Source of the DNA: an uncultured Leptospiraceae bacterium
GTDB lineage: Bacteria; Spirochaetota; UBA4802; JAGODF01
Assembly (NCBI GenBank): GCA_964627815.1
Contig: CAZVKE010000005.1
Span: 270,083 to 334,082 of the forward strand
Length of the DNA stretch: 64,000 nt
Direction of reading: 5' to 3'
Below are positions 6,597 through 60,802 of the stretch, in pieces. Below the pieces are notes generated by a model that did no database searches, was not told the origin of the DNA, and saw only the letters and a list, made by a program, of their open reading frames with translations. The first letter of the stretch is position 1; each line of letters opens with the position of its first letter. Position numbers and translations under genes: made by a program.

Positions 6597-7002
6597 CCTC
6601 TCAGATGAGCGATGCAATGCCTGATGACCCGCGTGGCCTCATCACACGGGGGTTAGGATGACCGAATGTAATTAACTTTTTATTTTCACGGGTGAAAGGC
6701 TCCGCCCTTCCCCCGTGCACCCCCATCCCGCCGCTCAAGCGCCGCGTGGGCTTGGCCTTACTTCAATTATTCCATCCATCTGATGCGGCCTGCGAAACGG
6801 CATCCTGCCGTCTCGGCCGTGCTCGCTCGGCCTCCTGCCTCGCTCGTCGTGGTGTTCATGGTAAAATCCCGCAGAAAATTTTTGTAAGCAGATTACAGGC
6901 CACGATCAAATCTAATACTTTCGATGTGACTTTCTTCCTCCATCGCCGGTCACGATGACCGGCGGTTCAGCGTACCGCATGGATGCGGTTTACGTTGAAC
7001 GA

Positions 7003-27621: not shown

Positions 27622-29988
27622 ATGGACAACGATTCAACCGTAAAAGACGCGCAACTCATTATCCCTGAAGAGATAATTCCCGATGTAATACCGATTATCC
27701 CCATATCGCACAGACCGATATTTCCCGGAATGATGATCCCGCTTGTTCTGACCGGTGAGAAGATGCTGGCGACTATCAACGCGATACTGGAAACCGAAAG
27801 CAAGATCGGCGGCGCTGTTCTTCTTAAGGAACAGACAGAACTTTCGAGCACCTCAGAATCGCTGTATACCGTCGGCGTCTCCGTGAAAGTCCTCAAAATC
27901 GCTCCAATCGATGAGCGCACAGTGCAGGTCATGGTTAGCGCCATGCGACGTTTTGTACTGGTAAAGGTAATAGGTGACGATCCTATCGTCCGGTGGCGCG
28001 TTTCGCACTACTATGAGGACTCCAAACAGTCGACTGAGATGAAAGCATACGCCATGGCGATCATCTCGATGGTAAAAGAGCTCATCAAATCGAATTCTCT
28101 CTTTCATGAGGAACTGAAGCTTTTTCTGAGCCGCTTTACCGTGGAGGACACGGGAAAGCTGGCTGATTTTGTTGCATCCATGACATCAGCGGAACCGCAC
28201 GAGCTTCAGGACATTCTTGAACTGATCGATGTAAAACAGCGTGTCGAAAAAGTGCTTACTCTCCTGAAGAAAGAACTCGAAGTGAGCAAGCTCCAGAAGA
28301 AGATCACCAAACAGATCGAAGAGAGGATCGCCAAACATCAGAAGGAATTCTTCCTGAAAGAACAGCTCAAGGAAATCAAAAAAGAACTCGGACTCGAAAA
28401 GGACGAAAAGACCTCAGAAGTTGAAAGGTTCGAGGAGCGGGCCAGGGCGCTCAAATTCAGCGATGAAGCGAAGGCCCGTTTTGAGGAAGAGCTCGAAAAG
28501 ATAAAGATACTTGAGCCGCATTCTGCCGAATACGGTGTCAGCCGCAATTATCTCGACTGGCTCACGTCGCTTCCCTGGGGATTGTATTCCGAGGATAATT
28601 ACGATATACCAAAAGCCGCGAAAATCCTGAACAGAGACCACTATGGCCTTGATGATATCAAAGACCGCATACTTGAATTCATCAGCACGGGCAAAATGAA
28701 AGGCTCCCTGACCGGTTCGATAATATGCTTTATCGGCCCTCCGGGCGTCGGCAAGACTTCGATCGGGAAATCCGTCGCTGAAGCGCTCAACAGAAAATTC
28801 TATCGGTTTTCTCTGGGCGGAATGAGGGACGAGGCTGAGATAAAAGGCCACAGAAGGACTTATATCGGCGCCATGCCGGGCAAGTTCATTCAGAGCCTGA
28901 AGTCCGTGGGAACAGCAAACCCCGTTATCATGCTTGATGAGATAGACAAGATCGGCATGAGCTATCAGGGCGACCCCGCGTCCGCGCTCCTCGAAGTGCT
29001 CGATCCGGAACAGAATTCCCAGTTCCTGGACCACTATCTCGACGTGCGGTTTGATCTATCCAACATACTCTTCATCGCGACGGCCAATCAGATGGATACA
29101 ATTCCGCTGCCGCTCCTTGACCGGATGGAAGTGATGAAACTTTCGGGATATGTTCTCGAAGAAAAGCTTGAGATCGCCAAAAGATACCTCATCCCGAAAC
29201 AGCTTAAGGCGCATGGATTCAAAAAGGGAATGGTCACATTCAACAACCAGGTGCTGAAAAAAATAATTGACGGCTATGCCCGTGAGGCGGGCGTGCGAAG
29301 CCTCGAGAACAGCATACGCAAGATAATGCGAAAAGCGACCAGGCATTACGCGGAAGGGAAAACCGATACCGTTGAAATTACCGTCGATAACGTTGAGGAG
29401 TATCTCGGAAAACCGCGTTTCCTTGACGAATCCCTGTACGACAAGAGCATTCCCGGCGTAGTGCTCGGTCTGGCCTGGACGAGCATGGGAGGGGCCACTC
29501 TCTATATCGAATCAACCGCGATTTCCACTCAGACACGTGGTTTCAAGCAGACAGGACAGCTCGGCGATGTCATGAAAGAATCTTCTGAAATAGCCTACAC
29601 CTACATTTCATCACGGGCGAAGGAATACGGATTAAATGAAGATTTTTTCAATAAGAACGTTATCCATCTTCATGTGCCGGCAGGGGCAACACCAAAGGAC
29701 GGTCCTTCGGCGGGAATTACCATGGCGACATCCATCTATTCTCTTGCCAAGAATAAACCGATAAAAAAGCAGATTGCCATGACAGGAGAGCTTACTATTA
29801 CAGGGAAAGTACTTCCTATTGGTGGAGTAAAAGAAAAGACGCTTGCCGCAAAAAGGGCCAAGGTGAAAACGATCATTTTCCCGCTTGAAAACAAGAAAGA
29901 TTTTGATGAACTACCTGAAAATATAAGATCCGGCATAGAAGCACGGTTCGTTAATTATTTCGATGAGGTTCTCGGTATAGTATACTGA
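27622..29988 (+). CDS. lon: ATP-dependent Lon protease
   Basis: Lon N-terminal domain. AAA+ Walker A GPPGVGKTS. Catalytic Ser in PKDGPSAGITMATSIYS and catalytic Lys in the TGKVLPIGGVKEK region. Confidence 0.9.
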   Translation: MDNDSTVKDAQLIIPEEIIPDVIPIIPISHRPIFPGMMIPLVLTGEKMLATINAILETESKIGGAVLLKEQTELSSTSESLYTVGVSVKVLKIAPIDERTVQVMVSAMRRFVLVKVIGDDPIVRWRVSHYYEDSKQSTEMKAYAMAIISMVKELIKSNSLFHEELKLFLSRFTVEDTGKLADFVASMTSAEPHELQDILELIDVKQRVEKVLTLLKKELEVSKLQKKITKQIEERIAKHQKEFFLKEQLKEIKKELGLEKDEKTSEVERFEERARALKFSDEAKARFEEELEKIKILEPHSAEYGVSRNYLDWLTSLPWGLYSEDNYDIPKAAKILNRDHYGLDDIKDRILEFISTGKMKGSLTGSIICFIGPPGVGKTSIGKSVAEALNRKFYRFSLGGMRDEAEIKGHRRTYIGAMPGKFIQSLKSVGTANPVIMLDEIDKIGMSYQGDPASALLEVLDPEQNSQFLDHYLDVRFDLSNILFIATANQMDTIPLPLLDRMEVMKLSGYVLEEKLEIAKRYLIPKQLKAHGFKKGMVTFNNQVLKKIIDGYAREAGVRSLENSIRKIMRKATRHYAEGKTDTVEITVDNVEEYLGKPRFLDESLYDKSIPGVVLGLAWTSMGGATLYIESTAISTQTRGFKQTGQLGDVMKESSEIAYTYISSRAKEYGLNEDFFNKNVIHLHVPAGATPKDGPSAGITMATSIYSLAKNKPIKKQIAMTGELTITGKVLPIGGVKEKTLAAKRAKVKTIIFPLENKKDFDELPENIRSGIEARFVNYFDEVLGIVY

Positions 29989-30019: not shown

Positions 30020-30059
30020 AAGAACACCCCTTTTATAATGCAGGGGTGTTCTTTTATTG
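30020..30059 (+). terminator. Rho-independent terminator after lon
   Basis: aagaacacccct-tttataatgc-aggggtgttctt is a 12-bp stem, followed by ttattg. Confidence 0.65.
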
Positions 30060-30086: not shown

Positions 30087-30115
30087 TTGACAAACCGGCA
30101 ATGTGTTAGTATATT
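30087..30115 (+). promoter_or_regulatory. Near-consensus sigma70 promoter (TTGACA-17-TATATT) for the HesB-like gene
   Basis: TTGACA at 30087..30092, a 17-nt spacer, TATATT at 30110..30115. This lies about 30 nt before GGGAG-ATG. Confidence 0.55.
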
Positions 30116-30147
30116 ATAAAATATTAAAATACCTGAGGGAGAACTAT

Positions 30148-30450
30148 ATGAATATTACTATTACGGATCAGGCACGAGATAAGATAATTGAGGCATTCAA
30201 AAATTCCGAATTTCTCAGCCCTGCACTGAGAATGATTTTTTCAGGAGTAGGGTGAGGAGGGCCCCGTATAGGGCTCGCTCTGGATGAGCGGGAAAACTCG
30301 ACTGAATACATCTATAGAACAAATGATATCGACGTCATTCTGGGGGATGATATAAAACGATTCGCCGAATCAGGAACGTCGATAAAGGTAGATTACAGAG
30401 AATCGAAGTTCGGTTCTGGGTTTGTAGTGTATGGCGGAAGCTCATGCTGA
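30148..30450 (+). CDS. HesB/IscA-like protein with an in-frame TGA (30253..30255); a candidate selenoprotein (Sec replaces the first conserved Cys)
   Basis: Translation: MNITITDQARDKIIEAFKNSEFLSPALRMIFSGVG-U-GGPRIGLALDERENSTEYIYRTNDIDVILGDDIKRFAESGTSIKVDYRESKFGSGFVVYGGSSC*. The TGA aligns with the first Cys of the IscA family (GGGCSG). The ORF is bisected by the TGA, which is why it is absent from the ORF track; both halves share one frame and one RBS (GGGAG). Hairpin cgctc-tggat-gagcg lies about 20 nt downstream of the TGA. Confidence 0.6.
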
Positions 30451-30560
30451 AGAATATCGATTACGATAAGGTTAAACTCATAGCCTTCATATCCACGCTC
30501 CTTGCGGGATGGATTTTTTTAAACCTGTGGATACTTCCAAAGCTTGGCGTAAGGACCTGA
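30444..30560 (+). CDS. Possible 38-aa single-TM peptide overlapping the end of the HesB-like gene
   Basis: MLKNIDYDKVKLIAFISTLLAGWIFLNLWILPKLGVRT. The ATG sits inside ...GGAAGCTCATGCTGA. Speculative. Confidence 0.2.
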   Translation: MLKNIDYDKVKLIAFISTLLAGWIFLNLWILPKLGVRT

Positions 30561-30605
30561 CTCTCGCAGGCCTGTTCCCTGGATGGAGAACATGAAACAA
30601 GCATA

Positions 30606-30644
30606 GAAAATAGACGGTAACAACCGTCTATTTTCTATTATTCC
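30606..30644 (+). terminator. Rho-independent terminator (perfect 13-bp stem + T-rich tail)
   Basis: gaaaatagacggt-aaca-accgtctattttc, followed by tattattcc. Confidence 0.65.
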
Positions 30645-43882: not shown

Positions 43883-43956
43883 GCGCCCGTAGCTCAGTTG
43901 GACAGAGCAACGGCCTTCTAAGCCGTGGGTCAGAGGTTCGAATCCTCTCGGGCGTG
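43883..43956 (+). tRNA. tRNA-Arg (anticodon TCT); integration target of the downstream element
   Basis: Acceptor GCGCCCG/CGGGCGT. Anticodon stem ACGGC/GCCGT with loop CT-TCT-AA. T-loop TTCGAAT. Confidence 0.8.
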
Positions 43957-43959
43957 CAT
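43915..43959 (+). repeat. attL core: direct repeat, intact tRNA-Arg 3' half
   Basis: Identical to 54985..55029. Confidence 0.85.
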
Positions 43960-44001
43960 AAAAACCGTGCATTTTTCAAAAGAAGAGCAAACCGATCCGC
44001 C

Positions 44002-44020
44002 GGTAGCACTCGGTAGCAAA
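44002..44020 (+). promoter_or_regulatory. Tandem CGGTAGCA(C/A) motifs; candidate integrase arm-type sites (attL side)
   Basis: cggtagcac-t-cggtagcaa. The same tandem pair recurs at 54861..54880, and a single copy at 54977..54985. Confidence 0.4.
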
Positions 44021-44044
44021 ACGGCGATAAATTGGAGGCTCAGT

Positions 44045-45202
44045 ATGAAAGAATCCTCTGACTTTTACCTCTATAAACGGCACACCAAAGACGGCGAATT
44101 CACCTACCACGCCAAAATTAAAACCCTAAATGGATACAGGTCGTTCTCAACCGGAACAGATGACGAGATGAAGGCGACGCGATGGGCCGCAAAGAAGCAT
44201 GCCGAAATTCAGTTGAACCCCGAGATTCTCCCCATACCAAAAAGATCGAAAACACTTTTCCGGAATTACGCGGCCGATTTCTTTTCCTCCTCCGGCAGAT
44301 GGGCGCAGGATCGACGAGCGACAGGAAGGCGGTTGTCTCAGCGCCAATGTGACGAGAAAGAAAGAATACTGAATACACACGTCATCCCGGCTATGGGGGA
44401 TAAGTCACTCTCCGATATTGATAGACGGTATCTGAAGGATTACAGAAACACTCTTCATGGCAAAGGGTACGCCGGAAGCACAATAAACCATATTTTATCG
44501 TGCATTAAAACTATCCTTGAATATGCAGAGGAGGAAGGATTGATATCCGGCCTCCCGAAGATCGAACGGGCATCAGATCGGGTTGTCAAACCTCGCGGAA
44601 TATTGACCCCGGAAGAAATGCGGGATCTCTTCAATGCGCAATGGGACGACCACCGGGCTTACGTGATGAGTATGCTCGCCGCGGCGTCCGGGTTGCGGAT
44701 GGGTGAATGTCTCGCCTTGCGCCATGCAGACCTGAAAGATGGATATATATGTATTGAAAAAACCTGGGACCACATATCCCGAAAGGTGATCAACTCAACG
44801 AAAACAGGCAGGGCGCGCACAATCATTATCCCCCGGCGTGTGCAATATGAGCTTGAGAGACTTATCACCCTGAATCCGTTCCCAGGCGGAGACGGTGAAA
44901 GATTTATATTTTTCGGAAAAACACTGGACGCACCCCTCGATGGAAAGTCAATCCTCAAGTATTTCAAGAGGGCGCTGCGCTCGATTGGAATAACCGAACC
45001 AATAAGGCAGGAGCGTGTGATTGTATGGCACAGCTTCCGGCACTTTTTCAACAGTTTATTATTAAACGAGAAAATCCCCGTCGCAAAAGTCCAGCAACTC
45101 ACCGGCCATTTATCTGATGAAATGACAGAGAATTACTATCACCTCGACGATCTCCACGATATCCGCGATATACAGGAGCGATTATTCCCCCCGATTGAAT
45201 AA
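44045..45202 (+). CDS. int: Tyrosine site-specific integrase (phage integrase family)
   Basis: Sits immediately 3' of the tRNA. Catalytic residues are LRHADL (Arg), WHSFRHFF (His-x-x-Arg, His) and ENYYHL (Tyr). An N-terminal SAM-like domain is present. The true start MKESSDFY is preceded by GGAGG; the ORF-track start would overlap the tRNA. Confidence 0.85.
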   Translation: MKESSDFYLYKRHTKDGEFTYHAKIKTLNGYRSFSTGTDDEMKATRWAAKKHAEIQLNPEILPIPKRSKTLFRNYAADFFSSSGRWAQDRRATGRRLSQRQCDEKERILNTHVIPAMGDKSLSDIDRRYLKDYRNTLHGKGYAGSTINHILSCIKTILEYAEEEGLISGLPKIERASDRVVKPRGILTPEEMRDLFNAQWDDHRAYVMSMLAAASGLRMGECLALRHADLKDGYICIEKTWDHISRKVINSTKTGRARTIIIPRRVQYELERLITLNPFPGGDGERFIFFGKTLDAPLDGKSILKYFKRALRSIGITEPIRQERVIVWHSFRHFFNSLLLNEKIPVAKVQQLTGHLSDEMTENYYHLDDLHDIRDIQERLFPPIE

Positions 45203-49523: not shown

Positions 49524-51590
49524 ATGCATTACCAACAAATCACAACTGACGCAATTTGTCAACAAAAAAATCATGATTTAAAATTTTATTTCGATATTGA
49601 AAAAGAATGCATCGATCTACTGGCGAAAGAACAGCTCCTCGAATGGGCAATCTCCCCGGAGTTCGGGTTCAGGGAGACGGGAGACGATACGGGTGATCCG
49701 TTCTCTGACGGCGTGTGGTCAGATGATGGCGGTTTCATGCTTCACGACGGCACACTCATAGACGAGGCCGGCATCTGCCATCGTATCGGTGAAAGTTTCC
49801 CGGTGACTCAGCTCATAGCCGGGTGGATCAAAGTCACACCTGAAGAAGTCGCCGAGCGTCTGCTGAAGAAATTCGCTGGCGACGGAATCCCTGGCGCACT
49901 CGATATACTACGAGATCACCGAAGCGGAAGGGAGGAATGGGAACAGCTCGGAAAGCCTGTTCCGGGAGAGCGCGGTCTGGTGTTCAATTCGGTCATGGGG
50001 TATGGCATCGACGAAAATCTCGAACCCGGTTCTCCGGCATGGATAGAAGCCGACCTGAGGAATGCGCAGATCGCCGATGAGGATATGGATGTTGTGAGAA
50101 AACATCATGAGCGGCTGAAGCGTGATCTCGCGACTGAAGAATTACAAGGGGTTGGTATGAATGTGACGCATGCCGAGAGTGGCCCGAAGCTTCCCACGAT
50201 ATCGGGCGGAGTTCCCATGCCGGAGAGCTGGCAATTCAGGCCGAGCGATCTTTCGAATACAGAGATATTCGCGGCGCTGGCACGCGGTCGCGTACTTTAT
50301 ATCCCGGAGCTGAAAACATGGCACTATTGGAGCGGAAAGAGGTGGCAGGCCGATCCCCAACGCATCCAGGTCGAGAAGATAGTCGTTGAAACCATTCAAA
50401 GCATATATGCTCTTTCGGCTGATGCGGCGAGCGAGAGCGAGCGAAAGCTTTACGCGGCATGGGCGCTAAAATCCGAAGATGAGTCGAAACGGCGCGCCAT
50501 TGTTTCGGGAGCAGAGCGTCACTCCGATCTCGTCAAGTCATTATCAGAATTCGACACAGATCCATATATCCTCAACTGTCAAAATGGCGTTATTGATTTA
50601 AGGACGGGGAGGTTTCACGGGCACGAATCCGATGATTATCTTATAAAGATGATCCCGGTCAATTATGACAGAAAAGCAGAGTGCCCCTTGTGGCTCGACA
50701 CTGTATCGAAAATCTTTAACAACGATGCTCCCCTCATGGAATACTTCCAGAGGATCGCAGGTTATACCCTTACCGGAAGCACGAAGGAACAGGCGCTCTT
50801 TTTCGCTTATGGCCGGGGCCGGAATGGAAAATCGACGGTACTCGAAACGCTGTTTCACATCATGGGCGATTATTCGCGGCGCATCGAGACAAACTCCCTG
50901 ATGGCAAAAACAGCGCGAGCGGCAGGATCGGCGAGCGAGGATATCGCGAAATTGAACGGAATACGGATGATTCTCTCATCGGAAGTCGAGGACGGACACA
51001 GAATAAACGAAAGCCTCATAAAAGACCTGACGGGCACCGATACGGTCACGGCGCGGCATCTGTATTCGCGATCATTCGATTTCCAGGTAATAGGAAAGAT
51101 TTTCATGTTCGGGAATTACAGGCCGCGCGTAAAGGGACAGGATGAGGGTATCAGACGGCGCGTGAAAATGATTCCCTTTTCTCATACGTTCACCTCACCC
51201 GATAAGGACATGCCCGAAAAGCTAAAGTCCGAGCTCCCTGGTATATTGAATTGGATGATAGAGGGGTGTATCAAGTGGCGGTCTGCCGGACTCATGGAAC
51301 CGGAGGCCGTAACAGTGGAAACCAAAAAATATTTTTTGGACAACAATGATCTGCAACTCTATTTCAATGATAATTTCGAAATATGCGAAGGTTCCGCGAT
51401 CCTGTTTTCCGACTTCTATGAAGGATTTATGGAATACACCGGAAAGGGGAAAGTATCGAAAATCAAATTTTCGCAGATGATGTCCGACATACTCGACCTT
51501 CATGTCGAACCGGGTGCCGGAAACAGGAAATATGTACAAGGAATAAGGCGTATTATTCAAGAATATGATGAAATTCCATTCATGGAATAG
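49524..51590 (+). CDS. Primase-helicase of the phage/plasmid P4-alpha / D5 NTPase family
   Basis: The C-terminal half carries the D5_N/primase-C region: NGVIDLRTG..., the Walker A GRGRNGKST and ...IRMILSSEVEDG.... Confidence 0.75.
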   Translation: MHYQQITTDAICQQKNHDLKFYFDIEKECIDLLAKEQLLEWAISPEFGFRETGDDTGDPFSDGVWSDDGGFMLHDGTLIDEAGICHRIGESFPVTQLIAGWIKVTPEEVAERLLKKFAGDGIPGALDILRDHRSGREEWEQLGKPVPGERGLVFNSVMGYGIDENLEPGSPAWIEADLRNAQIADEDMDVVRKHHERLKRDLATEELQGVGMNVTHAESGPKLPTISGGVPMPESWQFRPSDLSNTEIFAALARGRVLYIPELKTWHYWSGKRWQADPQRIQVEKIVVETIQSIYALSADAASESERKLYAAWALKSEDESKRRAIVSGAERHSDLVKSLSEFDTDPYILNCQNGVIDLRTGRFHGHESDDYLIKMIPVNYDRKAECPLWLDTVSKIFNNDAPLMEYFQRIAGYTLTGSTKEQALFFAYGRGRNGKSTVLETLFHIMGDYSRRIETNSLMAKTARAAGSASEDIAKLNGIRMILSSEVEDGHRINESLIKDLTGTDTVTARHLYSRSFDFQVIGKIFMFGNYRPRVKGQDEGIRRRVKMIPFSHTFTSPDKDMPEKLKSELPGILNWMIEGCIKWRSAGLMEPEAVTVETKKYFLDNNDLQLYFNDNFEICEGSAILFSDFYEGFMEYTGKGKVSKIKFSQMMSDILDLHVEPGAGNRKYVQGIRRIIQEYDEIPFME

Positions 51591-54984: not shown

Positions 54985-55029
54985 CTTCTAAGCCGTGGGT
55001 CAGAGGTTCGAATCCTCTCGGGCGTGCAT
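54985..55029 (+). repeat. attR core: duplicated 3' half of tRNA-Arg(TCT)
   Basis: Identical 45-mer to 43915..43959. No 5' tRNA half is present here. Confidence 0.85.
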
Positions 55030-56178: not shown

Positions 56179-56467
56179 ACTCCGGAAATATAGATCGGTA
56201 TGAGATGGATAATTGCTGTTTAAAGCTAATCTTGATACTCTTTACCTGTCAATTTTTTTTCATCATTTATGTTTGCATCCGGAAATATTGTTCTCAGGTC
56301 CTCGCTTCAGCAGCATAAGGGGGATATATCCCCTGATCAGATAAAAAATGTATCGACATCTACCGGTATGGCGTCGCACTGTTGTTGTCATGCGAAAAAG
56401 CGGCATTGTCCGCAAAGGCCCGGAGATGTGCCTTTATCAACGGCATCAGTGTGATATAATTACGGAT

Positions 56468-58747
56468 ATGGCGCAATGTGTTGAAATCCGCGTGAGAGGG
56501 ATAGTGCAGGGAGTGGGATTCCGCCCCTTCATCTTCCGGATCGCGCATGACTTCCGCATCAACGGAATGGTGTGGAACGACACCTGGGGCGTGCTCATCC
56601 ATGCCGAAGGGGCGGCCGGCGACATCGAAGGATTTATCCGCGAGATAGAGAACAATCCGCCGCCGCTGGCGATCGTTCAGTCCGTCGAAGCGACGGATAC
56701 AGGACCGCGTGGATACGATTCCTTCACCATCGACCAGAGCAGGGTCCTTGAATCGCGGTCGACTTTTATCCCCCCCGACACCTGCCTGTGCGAAGAATGC
56801 CGCCGGGAGCTCTTTGACCCGGCAAATCCGCGGTTCCGTTATCCGTTCATCACCTGCACCCACTGCGGGCCGCGCTTCAGCATCGTCGATGACATACCGT
56901 ACGACCGCTCGCGCACCTCGATGGCCGGTTTCGAGATGTGCCCGCTCTGCAGGCGCGAGTATGAAGACCCGCGCGACCGGCGCTTCCACACGCAGCCGAC
57001 CGCGTGCCCTGTCTGCGGCCCGCGGCTTTCGCTTCACCGCACCGACGGATCGCTCATCTCCGGAGAGATCGAGGAGATCCTCGACCTGACCATGAAAGGT
57101 ATCGGTGAGGGAAAGATTTTCGCGATCAAGGGCACAGGCGGATATCTCCTCGCCGCCGACGCGAGGAACGACGCGGCCGTCATCGAGCTCCGGCGCAGAA
57201 AGGGAAGGCCGTTCAAGCCATTCGCGCTCATGGCCGGTTCCATCGAAGCGATTGAATCATTCCTTGAAATTTCAGAGGCAGAGCGCGACCTCCTGCTTTC
57301 AAAAGAACGTCCGATCGTGCTCCTGAAAGAGAAGCGGCCGTTCGTGAGCCCGCATGTCGCGCCGTCGATACCGTTCCACGGCATCATGCTGCCGTACATG
57401 CCGTTCCACTACCAGCTTTTTGAGCGCAATCCGGAGATGGTGCTCATCATGACGAGCGGCAACGTGTCCGACGAGCCGATCATATTCCGCGACGAGGACG
57501 CGTTCAGCCACCTCGCGCCGATAGCCGACTATATCATCTCATACAACCGCGAGATCGTGTCCCAGACCGACGACAGCGTCATTTTCGTCGAGAACGAAAG
57601 GCCGTATTTTATCCGCCGCTCGCGCGGCTACGTGCCGGTCCCGTTCCACAGCGACGCCTCGAAGCACCAGATACTGGCGACGGGCGGCGACCTGAAAAAC
57701 AGCTTCGCGCTTTCAAGGCGCGATACCGTTATCATGAGCCAGTATCTGGGCGATCTCGCGACACCTTCGGGCAACCGGCTTTATCGGGATACCGTCGATC
57801 GATTTCAGAAGATCTACGATTTCGCCCCGGAGGTGGTTGTATCCGACATGCACCCCGGCTACTTCACGACCGCGATCGCCGACGAGTTCGAGAAGAAAGG
57901 CCTTGCGCGCATGAAGGTCCAGCACCACCACGCCCATATCGCCTCGGTGCTCGAGGACCGCGGCATACGCGGACCGGTCATCGGCATCGCCTTCGACGGC
58001 ACCGGCTACGGGACAGACGGGGCGCTCTGGGGAAGCGAATTCCTGGTCGCCGACAGGCGCGACTTCCGGCGCGCCGCGCATTTCTCGTATTTTCCCCTGC
58101 CAGGCGGAGAGCGCGCGATCAGAGAGGTATGGAAGATCGGCGTCTCGCTCCTTCACCTGCGGTACGGGCGGGATATCCCCCTGTTGAAAGAAAAGCCGCA
58201 GAACCCGATGCTCTTCGAGATCATGGAGAAGGGTATCAACTCTCCGCTCACGTGCAGCATCGGGCGCATCTTTGACGGCGTCGCGGCGATCCTCGGCATC
58301 GCCGACACCATCAGCACGGAAGCTGAAGCCGCGCAGTTACTCGAAATCGCGGCGATGAGAGGAGCGCACGATCCTCGGGAAGCGTTCATAGTTCCGTTCG
58401 AAGGCACGGAGCCGATGGTGCTCGATACCGGCGCCCTGATCGACTATATCGTCGGCCTCACGCGGCAGGGGGAAAGCGTCGAGCGGACCGCATGGCTCTT
58501 CCATTATGCGCTCGCGAAAACCACGGAAAAAATTGTTGAAATAATAAGCGCCGGGACTGAAATACGCACTGTTGCCTTGAGCGGTGGGGTGTTCCACAAC
58601 CGTCTTCTGCTGAAAATGCTTCTTTCAATGCTCGGCGACAGCGGATACGAGGTCTGCCTGCCCGAAAAGGTCCCGGTCAACGACGAAGGCATCGCGCTCG
58701 GGCAGATCGCGGTGGCAAAGGAACGATTACGATATGAACCAGACTGA
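56468..58747 (+). CDS. hypF: [NiFe]-hydrogenase maturation carbamoyltransferase HypF
   Basis: Acylphosphatase domain VRGIVQGVGFRPF. Two Zn-finger CxxC pairs (CLCEEC...CTHCGPRF and CPLC...CPVCGPR). YrdC-like and Kae1-like domains. The start was moved to MAQCVEI (ATG 56468); the ORF extends to 56348. Confidence 0.85.
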   Translation: MAQCVEIRVRGIVQGVGFRPFIFRIAHDFRINGMVWNDTWGVLIHAEGAAGDIEGFIREIENNPPPLAIVQSVEATDTGPRGYDSFTIDQSRVLESRSTFIPPDTCLCEECRRELFDPANPRFRYPFITCTHCGPRFSIVDDIPYDRSRTSMAGFEMCPLCRREYEDPRDRRFHTQPTACPVCGPRLSLHRTDGSLISGEIEEILDLTMKGIGEGKIFAIKGTGGYLLAADARNDAAVIELRRRKGRPFKPFALMAGSIEAIESFLEISEAERDLLLSKERPIVLLKEKRPFVSPHVAPSIPFHGIMLPYMPFHYQLFERNPEMVLIMTSGNVSDEPIIFRDEDAFSHLAPIADYIISYNREIVSQTDDSVIFVENERPYFIRRSRGYVPVPFHSDASKHQILATGGDLKNSFALSRRDTVIMSQYLGDLATPSGNRLYRDTVDRFQKIYDFAPEVVVSDMHPGYFTTAIADEFEKKGLARMKVQHHHAHIASVLEDRGIRGPVIGIAFDGTGYGTDGALWGSEFLVADRRDFRRAAHFSYFPLPGGERAIREVWKIGVSLLHLRYGRDIPLLKEKPQNPMLFEIMEKGINSPLTCSIGRIFDGVAAILGIADTISTEAEAAQLLEIAAMRGAHDPREAFIVPFEGTEPMVLDTGALIDYIVGLTRQGESVERTAWLFHYALAKTTEKIVEIISAGTEIRTVALSGGVFHNRLLLKMLLSMLGDSGYEVCLPEKVPVNDEGIALGQIAVAKERLRYEPD

Positions 58748-59801
58748 ACTGAAACAGCTCGCCGAAAGGCTTAAAACTTTCAGGCTCGACCGCGAAGCGC
58801 GGATCATGGAAGTGTGCGGCACGCACACCACCGAGTTTTTCCGCACCGGCGTCAAGGACATCTTCCCGAAAGGCCTCTCGCTCGTAAGCGGCCCCGGCTG
58901 CCCCGTGTGCGTGACGCCGAACGAGTACCTCGACCGCGTAATTGAGATCGGCAGGAAATACCGCCCGATTATTGCGACGTTCGGGGATATGATCCATGTG
59001 CCCTCATCGTACAGCTCGCTTAAAAATGAAAAGGCCGAAGGCCTGGATGTCGAGATAGTCTACTCGCCGCTCCAGGCGCTCGATATCGCCGAAAAGCACG
59101 CCGACCGCGAAGTGATGTTCCTGAGCGTCGGATTCGAGACCACCGCGCCCACGGAGGCGATCACCATCCTCGAAGCGAAGAAGCGCAACCTCGGCAACTT
59201 TTCGCTCTGTCCCGGCAACAAGCTCACTCCGCCGGCGGTGCGGGCGCTCCTCGATTCCGGAGAGGCCAACATCGACGGGTTCATCATCCCCGGACACGTG
59301 AGCGCCATTATCGGCGCGAAGGGATGGCGATTCATCGCCGACGAATATAAAAAGCCGTGCGTTGTCGCCGGTTTCGCAAGCCACGACCTCATTACAGGCT
59401 CGCTCGTCCTCGCCCAGCTCATCGCCGCGTCGCGCCCCGAGATGCGGAACGAATACACGCGCGTGGTGAAGGAGGAGGGCAACCTCAAGGCGCAGGAGAT
59501 CCTCGAACAGGTCTTCACGACCGGCGACTCTGTCTGGCGCGGCATCGGCTCTATACCAAAAAGCGCATACGTCATCCGCGACGGGTACGCCGACTTTGAC
59601 GCGTTCAGGAAATTCCCGGTCGAACCGCCGGAACCGCGCGAGCCGAAAGGATGCAAATGCGGCGAAGTCCTGAAAGGGCTCATGCTGCCGCCGCAATGCC
59701 AGCTCTTCGCGAAGGCATGCTCTCCGGAACATCCCGTCGGGCCGTGCATGGTATCCACCGAGGGATCGTGCTCCGCATATTACAAGTACGGGAGGCGCTG
59801 A
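58734..59801 (+). CDS. hypD: Hydrogenase maturation factor HypD
   Basis: IMEVCGTHTT (CGxH motif), GPGCPVC, GFETTAP, PGHVSAI, and C-terminal CxxxC...C motifs. Confidence 0.85.
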   Translation: MNQTELKQLAERLKTFRLDREARIMEVCGTHTTEFFRTGVKDIFPKGLSLVSGPGCPVCVTPNEYLDRVIEIGRKYRPIIATFGDMIHVPSSYSSLKNEKAEGLDVEIVYSPLQALDIAEKHADREVMFLSVGFETTAPTEAITILEAKKRNLGNFSLCPGNKLTPPAVRALLDSGEANIDGFIIPGHVSAIIGAKGWRFIADEYKKPCVVAGFASHDLITGSLVLAQLIAASRPEMRNEYTRVVKEEGNLKAQEILEQVFTTGDSVWRGIGSIPKSAYVIRDGYADFDAFRKFPVEPPEPREPKGCKCGEVLKGLMLPPQCQLFAKACSPEHPVGPCMVSTEGSCSAYYKYGRR

Positions 59802-60802
59802 TGTCAGGCAAAATTCTCGCCGGCCACGGAAGCGGCGGCAAGCTCATGAACGAAATGATCGACTCGGTCATCCGTAAGACCCTCGGGCCCGAATCGATCC
59901 AGCTCGACGACTCAGCGGTGCTCCCGATCGGCTCGGAGCGGATCGTATTCACGACCGATTCCTACACGATCACACCGCTCTTTTTTCCGGGTGGGGATAT
60001 AGGCTCGCTCGCCGTGAACGGCACCGTGAACGACCTCTCCGTAATGGGTGCAAAGCCGCTCTTCATCTCGTGCGCGCTTATCATCGAGGAAGGGCTTGAC
60101 ATGGAGCTCTTCGACCGCATTCTCGGTTCGATGAAAACGGCCGCGGACCGCGCGGGCGTACAGATCGTCACCGGAGACACCAAGGTGGTGCAGAAAGGCG
60201 CGGCTGACGGCATTTTCATCAACACGTCAGGGATCGGATATCTACCCCACGGCCTGCAGCGCCGGGAGATCGTACCGGGCGACGCGATCATCGTGAGCGG
60301 CCACATCGGCGATCACGGAGTCGCGGTAATGGCCGAGCGCAACAAACTCACGTTCACGAAAGGCCTACTATCCGACTGCCAGCCGCTGAACGGCCTCATT
60401 CAGCGCGTGGTGAAGGAGTTCCCGTCATCAATCAAGTTCATGCGCGATCCCACCCGCGGAGGCGTCGCCTCGGTGCTCAACGAGATCGTGAAGGATAGAA
60501 ATTTCAGCGCGCGCCTCTTCGAGGAAGAGCTTCCCGTGAAAGACGAGGTGCGCGGCGTCTGCGAGATACTCGGCATCGAGCCGCTCTACGTCGCCAACGA
60601 AGGCAAGGTGGTCATGATCGTGAGCGCCGCCGACGCGAAGGCGGTCTGCGAGCTCATGCGGACCACGGAGGAAGGCAGGGACGCGCGCGTTATCGGCGAC
60701 ATCACCGGTGAATACGCCGGAAAGGCATACCTGAGTACAGCGGTCGGCGGGGAGAGGATCCTTCCGCTTCTGATCGACGAGCAGCTTCCGCGGATATGCT
60801 GA
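59801..60802 (+). CDS. hypE: Hydrogenase maturation factor HypE
   Basis: AIR-synthase-like fold. The C-terminus ...PRIC carries the conserved terminal Cys. The ATG overlaps the hypD stop. Confidence 0.85.
   Translation: MSGKILAGHGSGGKLMNEMIDSVIRKTLGPESIQLDDSAVLPIGSERIVFTTDSYTITPLFFPGGDIGSLAVNGTVNDLSVMGAKPLFISCALIIEEGLDMELFDRILGSMKTAADRAGVQIVTGDTKVVQKGAADGIFINTSGIGYLPHGLQRREIVPGDAIIVSGHIGDHGVAVMAERNKLTFTKGLLSDCQPLNGLIQRVVKEFPSSIKFMRDPTRGGVASVLNEIVKDRNFSARLFEEELPVKDEVRGVCEILGIEPLYVANEGKVVMIVSAADAKAVCELMRTTEEGRDARVIGDITGEYAGKAYLSTAVGGERILPLLIDEQLPRIC

Follow-up and report, generated by a model that had tools for sequence, protein, structure and literature searches.

A HesB/IscA-like gene with an in-frame TGA and its small neighbour

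The window analysed here, i.e. the whole 64-kb stretch of DNA from an uncultured Leptospiraceae bacterium, carries on its plus strand a candidate HesB/IscA-like selenoprotein gene of 100 codons (30148-30450), recognised from its translation, its family matches and its alignment with HI1723, followed by a second candidate selenoprotein gene of 58 codons (30444-30620, plus strand), supported by its ORF, its conservation and its homologues. The frame of the first gene reads MNITITDQARDKIIEAFKNSEFLSPALRMIFSGVG-TGA-GGPRIGLALDERENSTEYIYRTNDIDVILGDDIKRFAESGTSIKVDYRESKFGSGFVVYGGSSC-TGA. Its codon 36 is an in-frame TGA (30253-30255), proposed to encode Sec (U36, in the motif G-U-G-G-P) on the basis of conservation and of the alignment with Cys forms. 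The earlier note had described this TGA and the 64 open codons behind it, and all elements that it listed are found in the sequence, including the motifs GVG-*-GG, DIDVILGDD and GSGFVV and the C-terminal end ...GGSSC, whose last residue (Cys100) is directly followed by the stop codon TGA (30448-30450).

In the ORF list of the window, the upstream ORF closes at 30255, and no plus-strand ORF starts after TGA36 in the same frame. No in-frame ATG, GTG or TTG occurs for about 57 codons after TGA36, i.e. until near the gene end. That ORF calling misses the gene is borne out by public records: the GenBank assembly with the same sequence (GCA_030154545.1) has only a 35-aa stub at this position, and relatives appear in GenBank as "hypothetical proteins" of 61-66 aa.

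The start codon at 30148 is preceded at a distance of six nt by the ribosome binding site GAGGGAG (30135-30141, plus strand) on which the earlier note had based it, and is further supported by the conservation of the N-terminus MNITITD in homologues. The near-consensus sigma-70 promoter that had been pointed out is also present, as a promoter-like site TTGACA-17 nt-TATATT (30087-30115, plus strand) that matches at 11 of 12 positions and is assigned from the consensus match only. It lies 3' of the terminator hairpin of lon (~30020-30055), so that lon and the HesB-like gene have separate signals. In 18 loci of Spirochaetota (L007-L032), the gene immediately preceding the HesB-like gene is lon (27622-29988 in the window), a conserved arrangement. 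An intrinsic-terminator-like hairpin with a T-run is also found inside the HesB-like coding region, about 20 nt 5' of the UGA (30212-30232); we treated it as a chance occurrence rather than a real signal, since it is weakened in the close relative L001 (see below).

The second TGA-containing gene, directly downstream, was missed in the earlier note. Its ATG overlaps the stop codon of the HesB-like gene (tcATGcTGA), and its frame, MLKNIDYDKVKLIAFISTLLAGWIFLNLWILPKLGVRT-TGA-LSQACSLDGEHETSIENRR-TAA, encodes a single-pass membrane protein of 58 residues with an N-terminal transmembrane helix and the segment ...LPKLGVRT-U-LSQAC-SLDGE... The TAA sits in the loop of a hairpin with a 16-bp palindromic stem (30603-30638; called on the minus strand, palindromic), which is also present in L001 and is likely the terminator of a two-gene unit. 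The two genes would be co-transcribed and probably translationally coupled.

Affiliation and fold of the HesB-like protein

The affiliation with IscA/HesB proposed in the earlier note is supported by several profile matches. With Cys in place of TGA36, the protein matches the Pfam family Fe-S_biosyn (PF01521) with E = 4.7e-5 and 24 bits, the gathering score being 26.3, and the NCBIfam models IscA_HesB_Se (NF038090; E = 3.5e-14, score 52.9, below the cut-off of 85) and HesB_rel_seleno (TIGR01911; E = 1.3e-9, score 38.6, below the cut-off of 66.35). All nine clade members tested, i.e. that of the window plus eight others, fall below the NCBIfam cut-offs (the best reaching 82.3 against 85), and the clade is therefore a sister clade or an outlier relative to the curated models.

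Among solved structures, HI1723 (PDB 2apn) is matched with E = 2e-5, and U36 falls on its Cys. The same position corresponds to the first ligand Cys of GGGCSG...SCGC in Cys-containing IscA homologues, in agreement with the earlier placement of the TGA at the first conserved Cys. Moreover, for the homologue P0004, which shares 52% identity with the protein of the window, a structural model (pLDDT 80.6) matches 1r94, 1s98, 1x0g, 2d2a and 2apn at probability 1.00 and with TM-scores of 0.6-0.75, the matches comprising IscA of E. coli and T. elongatus, SufA, HI1723 and DsrR. According to this model, both halves around residue 36 jointly make one IscA fold.

The protein thus resembles the IscA/SufA/ErpA carriers (1r94, 1s98, 1x0g, 2d2a, and HI1723, 2apn) in the fold of the modelled homologue and in the location of Sec on the first ligand Cys, but it differs from them in its ligands and scores far under the cut-offs of the IscA, SufA and ErpA equivalog models. 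Whereas Cys homologues end in ...SCGC, the clade ends in a single ...SC with a nearly invariant C-terminal Cys, so that the canonical set of a Cys followed by C-x-C is reduced to Sec36 and Cys100 as the only cysteine/Sec ligands; the three invariant ligand cysteines (Cys ... C-x-C) were not found in the HesB-like clade.

The residues U-G-G-P at codons 36-39 fit the UxGP motif of the HesB-like selenoprotein family, which is classed as experimentally verified (PMC13188914, Table 1). A 2006 survey listed eleven bacterial members, with none from Spirochaetes (PMC1794560), and the HesB-like selenoprotein of M. maripaludis has been verified by 75Se labelling and mutagenesis, its function being unclear (PMC11097638). 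Given these reports, the view of the earlier note that HesB-like selenoproteins are rare and known mainly from metagenomes does not hold. The window protein shares with this family (e.g. M. maripaludis MMJJ_08070) a length of about 100 aa, the IscA/HesB relationship, one Sec located at the position of the first conserved Cys, the UxGP motif and, as in bacteria, a SECIS inside the coding region. However, its clade has a signature of its own (G-U-GGPR[LI]GLALDE ... GSGF ... C-COOH), is concentrated in Spirochaetota/Leptospirales metagenome-assembled genomes (MAGs), and is present in public records as fragments only. We conclude that the window gene is a new, unannotated clade member of the known HesB-like selenoprotein kind.

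Selection and conservation across codon 36

The closest relative, L001 (JGI metagenome contig Ga0496406_042563), has 89.6% DNA identity to the window over 2.4 kb and the same gene order, and keeps both TGA36 and the open frame behind it. Between the two sequences there are seven synonymous and two non-synonymous changes before TGA36, and 14 synonymous and two non-synonymous changes after it. The first synonymous changes past TGA36 fall at codons +2 and +4, where no start codon is present. This bias indicates that the 64 downstream codons are under protein-coding selection in the same frame, and, together with the lack of a downstream start codon, it supports the selenoprotein reading put forward in the earlier note. 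A 1-nt deletion directly after the ATG of the HesB-like gene (L001 1180-1195) puts the start codon of L001 out of frame; it may reflect an assembly error or be genuine, and the remaining gene is intact and under purifying selection.

A genome scan with the single window protein as query gave no matches. A later scan of one genome per species, with a four-sequence alignment as query and peptide patterns that flank codon 36 and exclude it, returned 151 relatives of the HesB-like gene. The 80 best of these come mostly from Spirochaetota/Leptospirales MAGs; a clade member (L064) is also found in the cultivable Pelovirga terrestris M08fum. Codon 36 is TGA in 79 of them and TGT in one, a proportion that may be inflated, as one of the two search patterns (GGPR[LI]GLA[LI][DE]) spans the peptide encoded by the hairpin described below and drifted Cys forms are possibly under-sampled. 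In the 79 loci, which belong to several phyla, the two halves lie next to each other in the same frame, and there is exactly one TGA. The combination of TGA36, downstream frame and hairpin recurs in 79 of the 80 related loci and is therefore more than chance.

When the C-terminal 64 aa were used as query in an exhaustive HMMER search, the matches were about 22 C-terminal fragments, each of roughly 60 aa and starting a few codons past the TGA position, one Cys form, and three entries of full length that have W at the site because the gene caller had read the TGA as Trp. The homologues end in TAA, TAG or TGA after the conserved C-terminal Cys.

The sole Cys (TGT) form among the 80 related loci is L051 (10001-10282). 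In this locus the SECIS loop is degraded (GCUAUAGAUGAG), with loss of the GG of the loop, and the protein diverges past ...DTGTN as if frameshifted. The sequence of L051 suggests that Sec was converted to Cys and that the element, and perhaps the gene too, decayed afterwards.

A covarying hairpin within the coding sequence

A SECIS-like hairpin (30274-30292, plus strand), identified by folding, covariation and codon freezing, consists of a 7-bp stem (CUCGCUC/GAGCGGG) and the loop UGGAU (30281-30285), which starts 25 nt after UGA36. Its core, cgctc-tggat-gagcg (30276-30290), is the SECIS candidate of the earlier note, and it indeed turns out to be a conserved and covarying element. The hairpin has a dG of -11.6 kcal/mol (z = -3.3), and none of 200 shuffled sequences was as stable. 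When 81 sequences are aligned without gaps starting from the TGA, nt 22-28 (numbered from the TGA) pair with nt 34-40 around the loop. Among the 79 distinct sequences used for covariation, 94.9% of the cells are paired, against at most 48% when the hairpin is slid to control positions, and the covariation score is 0.299 compared with 0.229 ± 0.009 in shuffles, none of 500 of which reached it. Pair 24-38 is never unpaired and occurs as GC (39), GU (29), AU (7), CG (2) and UA (2), the window having the rare C-G form.

The hairpin also leaves a trace in codon usage. Within it, Ala is GCT in 78/80 sequences, Leu CTG in 80/80, Glu GAG in 80/80 and Asp GAT in 67/74, and the codon entropy of Ala, Leu and Glu in stem and loop is about 0 bits, whereas it is about 2 bits for equally conserved upstream residues. 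Synonymous codons are therefore frozen in the hairpin only, the upstream residues using all their codons.

We also considered a hairpin right after the UGA (nt 7-12 with nt 18-23), which appears in the minimum-energy fold. We rejected it for lack of covariation support: its pair 9-21 is unpaired in 38 of the 79 sequences, and L001 breaks it. It is best explained by the GGN-CCC...GGG codons.

Bacterial SECIS elements are characterized by an apical loop that is small and includes a G, just downstream of the UGA (PMC1088965). With its small G-containing loop, its proximity to the UGA, its covariation and its codon constraint, the hairpin at 30274-30292 reads as a bacterial SECIS. It resembles the E. 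coli fdhF type and the consensus of Zhang and Gladyshev in being a stem-loop inside the ORF, shortly past the UGA, with a small G-containing apical loop. However, its stem has a length of only 7 bp, covariation gives no support to a possible lower helix (nt 7-12/18-23), and SelB binding is putative.

A second candidate selenoprotein gene

In the small gene, the proposed Sec codon is the in-frame TGA at codon 39 (30558-30560, plus strand), within the motif T-U-x4-C, as suggested by codon conservation and by the existence of Cys forms. A small ORF of this kind lies behind the HesB-like gene in 26 loci, all from Spirochaetota except one from SAR324. In these loci, the codon after an invariant Thr is TGA in 25 cases and TGC in one (L031), and the conserved sequence x-S-x-x-C-(S/P)-(L/V)-(D/E) comes next; the TGA is also found in L092.

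A SECIS-like hairpin (30573-30592, plus strand; -7.1 kcal/mol) with the loop UGGAU (30580-30584) and one bulged A in the window copy accompanies this codon. Hairpins with a UGGAN loop start 23-26 nt after the UGA of the small gene and occupy the same place in relatives, where the stems vary by genome (GUUCGC/GCGAAC, GCCCGU/ACGGGU, GUCCUG/CAGGAC, GCUCCC/GGGAGC), and the mean contiguous stem is 5.0 bp compared with 1.5 bp in shuffles. From sequence comparison, the small gene (30444-30620) thus looks like a second selenoprotein gene with the same type of SECIS loop. The presence next to the HesB-like gene of a gene with a TGA, Cys homologues and a UGGAU hairpin gives indirect support for Sec decoding by the organism.

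A profile search with the small protein retrieved 128 proteins. Among the 120 cluster representatives listed, 74 stop directly after ...G(I/V)xT, 45 have Cys at this position and one has W. The spacing C-x4-C is found in 40 of the 43 classified Cys forms. Searches against the Pfam and NCBIfam models gave no match even at E <= 10 for either the Sec or the Cys forms, and no corresponding entry is present among the 119 selenoprotein families of a 2026 review (PMC13188914, Table 1). Members of the family in databases are all unnamed or called "hypothetical protein", and have no Pfam domain.

We considered whether the small protein could be TsoA (LULAxC, NF045695), which is likewise a short protein with a Sec...Cys motif and with Sec and Cys forms in different genomes. 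However, the small protein has U-x4-C after an invariant Thr instead of the U-L-A-x-C of TsoA, it carries an N-terminal transmembrane helix, and it gives no match to NF045695 at E <= 10; because of the motif spacing and the missing HMM match, we rejected this identification.

We would give about even chances to the proposal that the small gene founds an undescribed selenoprotein family, forming with the HesB-like protein a two-selenoprotein module in the spirochaete lineage and in one SAR324 locus. Such a family would be defined by a length of about 50-60 residues, one transmembrane helix, an invariant ...LP(K/R)xG(I/V)xT-[U/C]-x4-C by the membrane, and a UGGAN-loop SECIS of its own.

Elsewhere, the small gene adjoins genes for thioredoxin, an ArsR-type regulator, HMA, DUF302 or DUF6132 proteins, or stands alone. 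These neighbours point to a role in thiol/selenol redox chemistry or with metals or metalloids. The partners of the small protein, i.e. the HesB-like protein here and thioredoxins and ArsR-type regulators elsewhere, suggest that it may be a membrane-tethered selenol/thiol relay or metal(loid) site served by a soluble Sec/Cys protein.

Search for the Sec machinery and genomic context

We searched for the Sec insertion machinery in the window and in about 1.4 Mb of related loci, and found no selA, selB, selD or tRNA-Sec in this sequence. ARAGORN and Rfam searches of the window returned only tRNA-Pro and tRNA-Arg, ARAGORN found no tRNA-Sec in 56 related loci, and tblastn with approximate probe sequences for E. 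coli SelA, SelB and SelD gave no match in the window or in the related loci. An ORF with an AIRS domain (59651-60802) was considered as SelD and rejected, as it is HypE (TIGR02124, 421 bits).

This ORF belongs to a hydrogenase maturation cluster, hypF-hypD-hypE (56348-60802), and an Rnf system is encoded at 14.6-19 kb of the window; together they indicate an anaerobic lifestyle. The window also encodes MurJ, FlgG and FlgI and has one match to a Leptospira-type adhesin, and its Lon is 77-85% identical to that of Spirochaetota/Leptospirales MAGs.

Two identical 45-nt copies of the 3' end of tRNA-Arg(tct), in direct orientation (43915-43959 and 54985-55029), flank a stretch of about 11 kb. A tyrosine integrase is encoded in this stretch at 43925-45202 and a P4-family primase at 49524-51590, and its last part is low in GC (0.40 at 52-56 kb). 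These features suggest an integrated mobile element bounded by attL and attR.

We scanned the window for further selenoprotein genes as a TGA followed by a UGGA-loop hairpin. The one other candidate, at 6956, was rejected on account of a low-complexity frame that is not protein-like, and a naive scan of TGA-joined ORFs was discarded as too noisy.

How UGA36 is read

Taken together, these data make it highly probable that 30148-30450 is an intact gene for a selenoprotein of HesB/IscA fold in which UGA36 is decoded as selenocysteine. In the proposed mechanism, UGA36 would be read as Sec during translation, and the hairpin located 21-39 nt downstream, within the coding sequence of L-A-L-D-E, would serve as a bacterial SECIS, bringing SelB-GTP-Sec-tRNA(Sec) to the ribosome.

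Read-through without Sec, through near-cognate insertion of Trp, Cys or Arg aided by the hairpin or through reassignment of TGA (codes 4 or 25), appears improbable. Such a reading could account for the fact that the Sec machinery of the organism was not seen in the sequence searched (window and related loci), and for the W that some pipelines gave at the TGA of homologues. However, the normal stop used most often in the window is TGA: it ends 15 of the 36 long ORFs, including lon and the HesB-like gene itself, which excludes a reassigned genetic code. Moreover, the sole alternative codon at the site encodes Cys, at the position of a metal-ligand Cys, the hairpin has the features of a bacterial SECIS (PMC1088965), and the HesB-like family has been labelled as a selenoprotein in M. 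maripaludis.

If TGA36 were instead a genuine stop, the gene would be split or decaying, and the downstream 64 codons would be untranslated or translated from an independent internal start. Gene callers do treat it in this way, as seen from the 35-aa ORF in the GenBank record and from the many relatives for which they give a fragment of about 60 aa with its start at an M/L codon, five codons past the TGA. In the window, however, that position is ATA (Ile), with no alternative start until near the gene end, and the synonymous-biased change already from codons +2 and +4, the single-TGA frame kept in loci of several phyla and the one IscA fold that the two halves are predicted to form together make this explanation very improbable.

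The probability that TGA36 arose in a normal Cys gene through a mistake in assembly or sequencing is negligible: TGA and TGY differ by a single base, but the identical TGA in three independent assemblies (Logan SRR9878565, NCBI GCA_030154545.1 and the window), as well as in the JGI relative L001 and 79 other genomes, refutes it.

With UGA36 decoded as selenocysteine, Sec36 would replace the first cluster-ligand Cys of A-type Fe-S carriers, and the single terminal Cys would stand for the C-x-C. Most likely, these residues would provide two ligands (Se,S) for iron or an Fe-S cluster bound across a dimer; alternatively, the protein may cycle through a selenenylsulfide. An interplay between the HesB-like protein and the membrane-anchored T-U-x4-C protein encoded next to it may also be envisaged.

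Implications

The novelty of the HesB-like gene itself is modest, as it represents a new, unannotated clade of a known family. This clade is present in at least 79 species-level genomes, mostly of uncultured Spirochaetota/Leptospirales, and is annotated in public records as stubs of 35 aa or about 60 aa only, while the curated NCBIfam cut-offs miss it. Counts of the Spirochaetota selenoproteome are therefore too low. The locus also provides a clear example of a SECIS constraining a protein motif, LALDE being encoded by one codon per residue in about 80 genomes. The small membrane protein is the more interesting lead and, if confirmed, would represent a selenoprotein family that is new as well as very short. 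Its genetic link with the HesB-like gene offers a handle on what the HesB-like protein does, two decades after its discovery.
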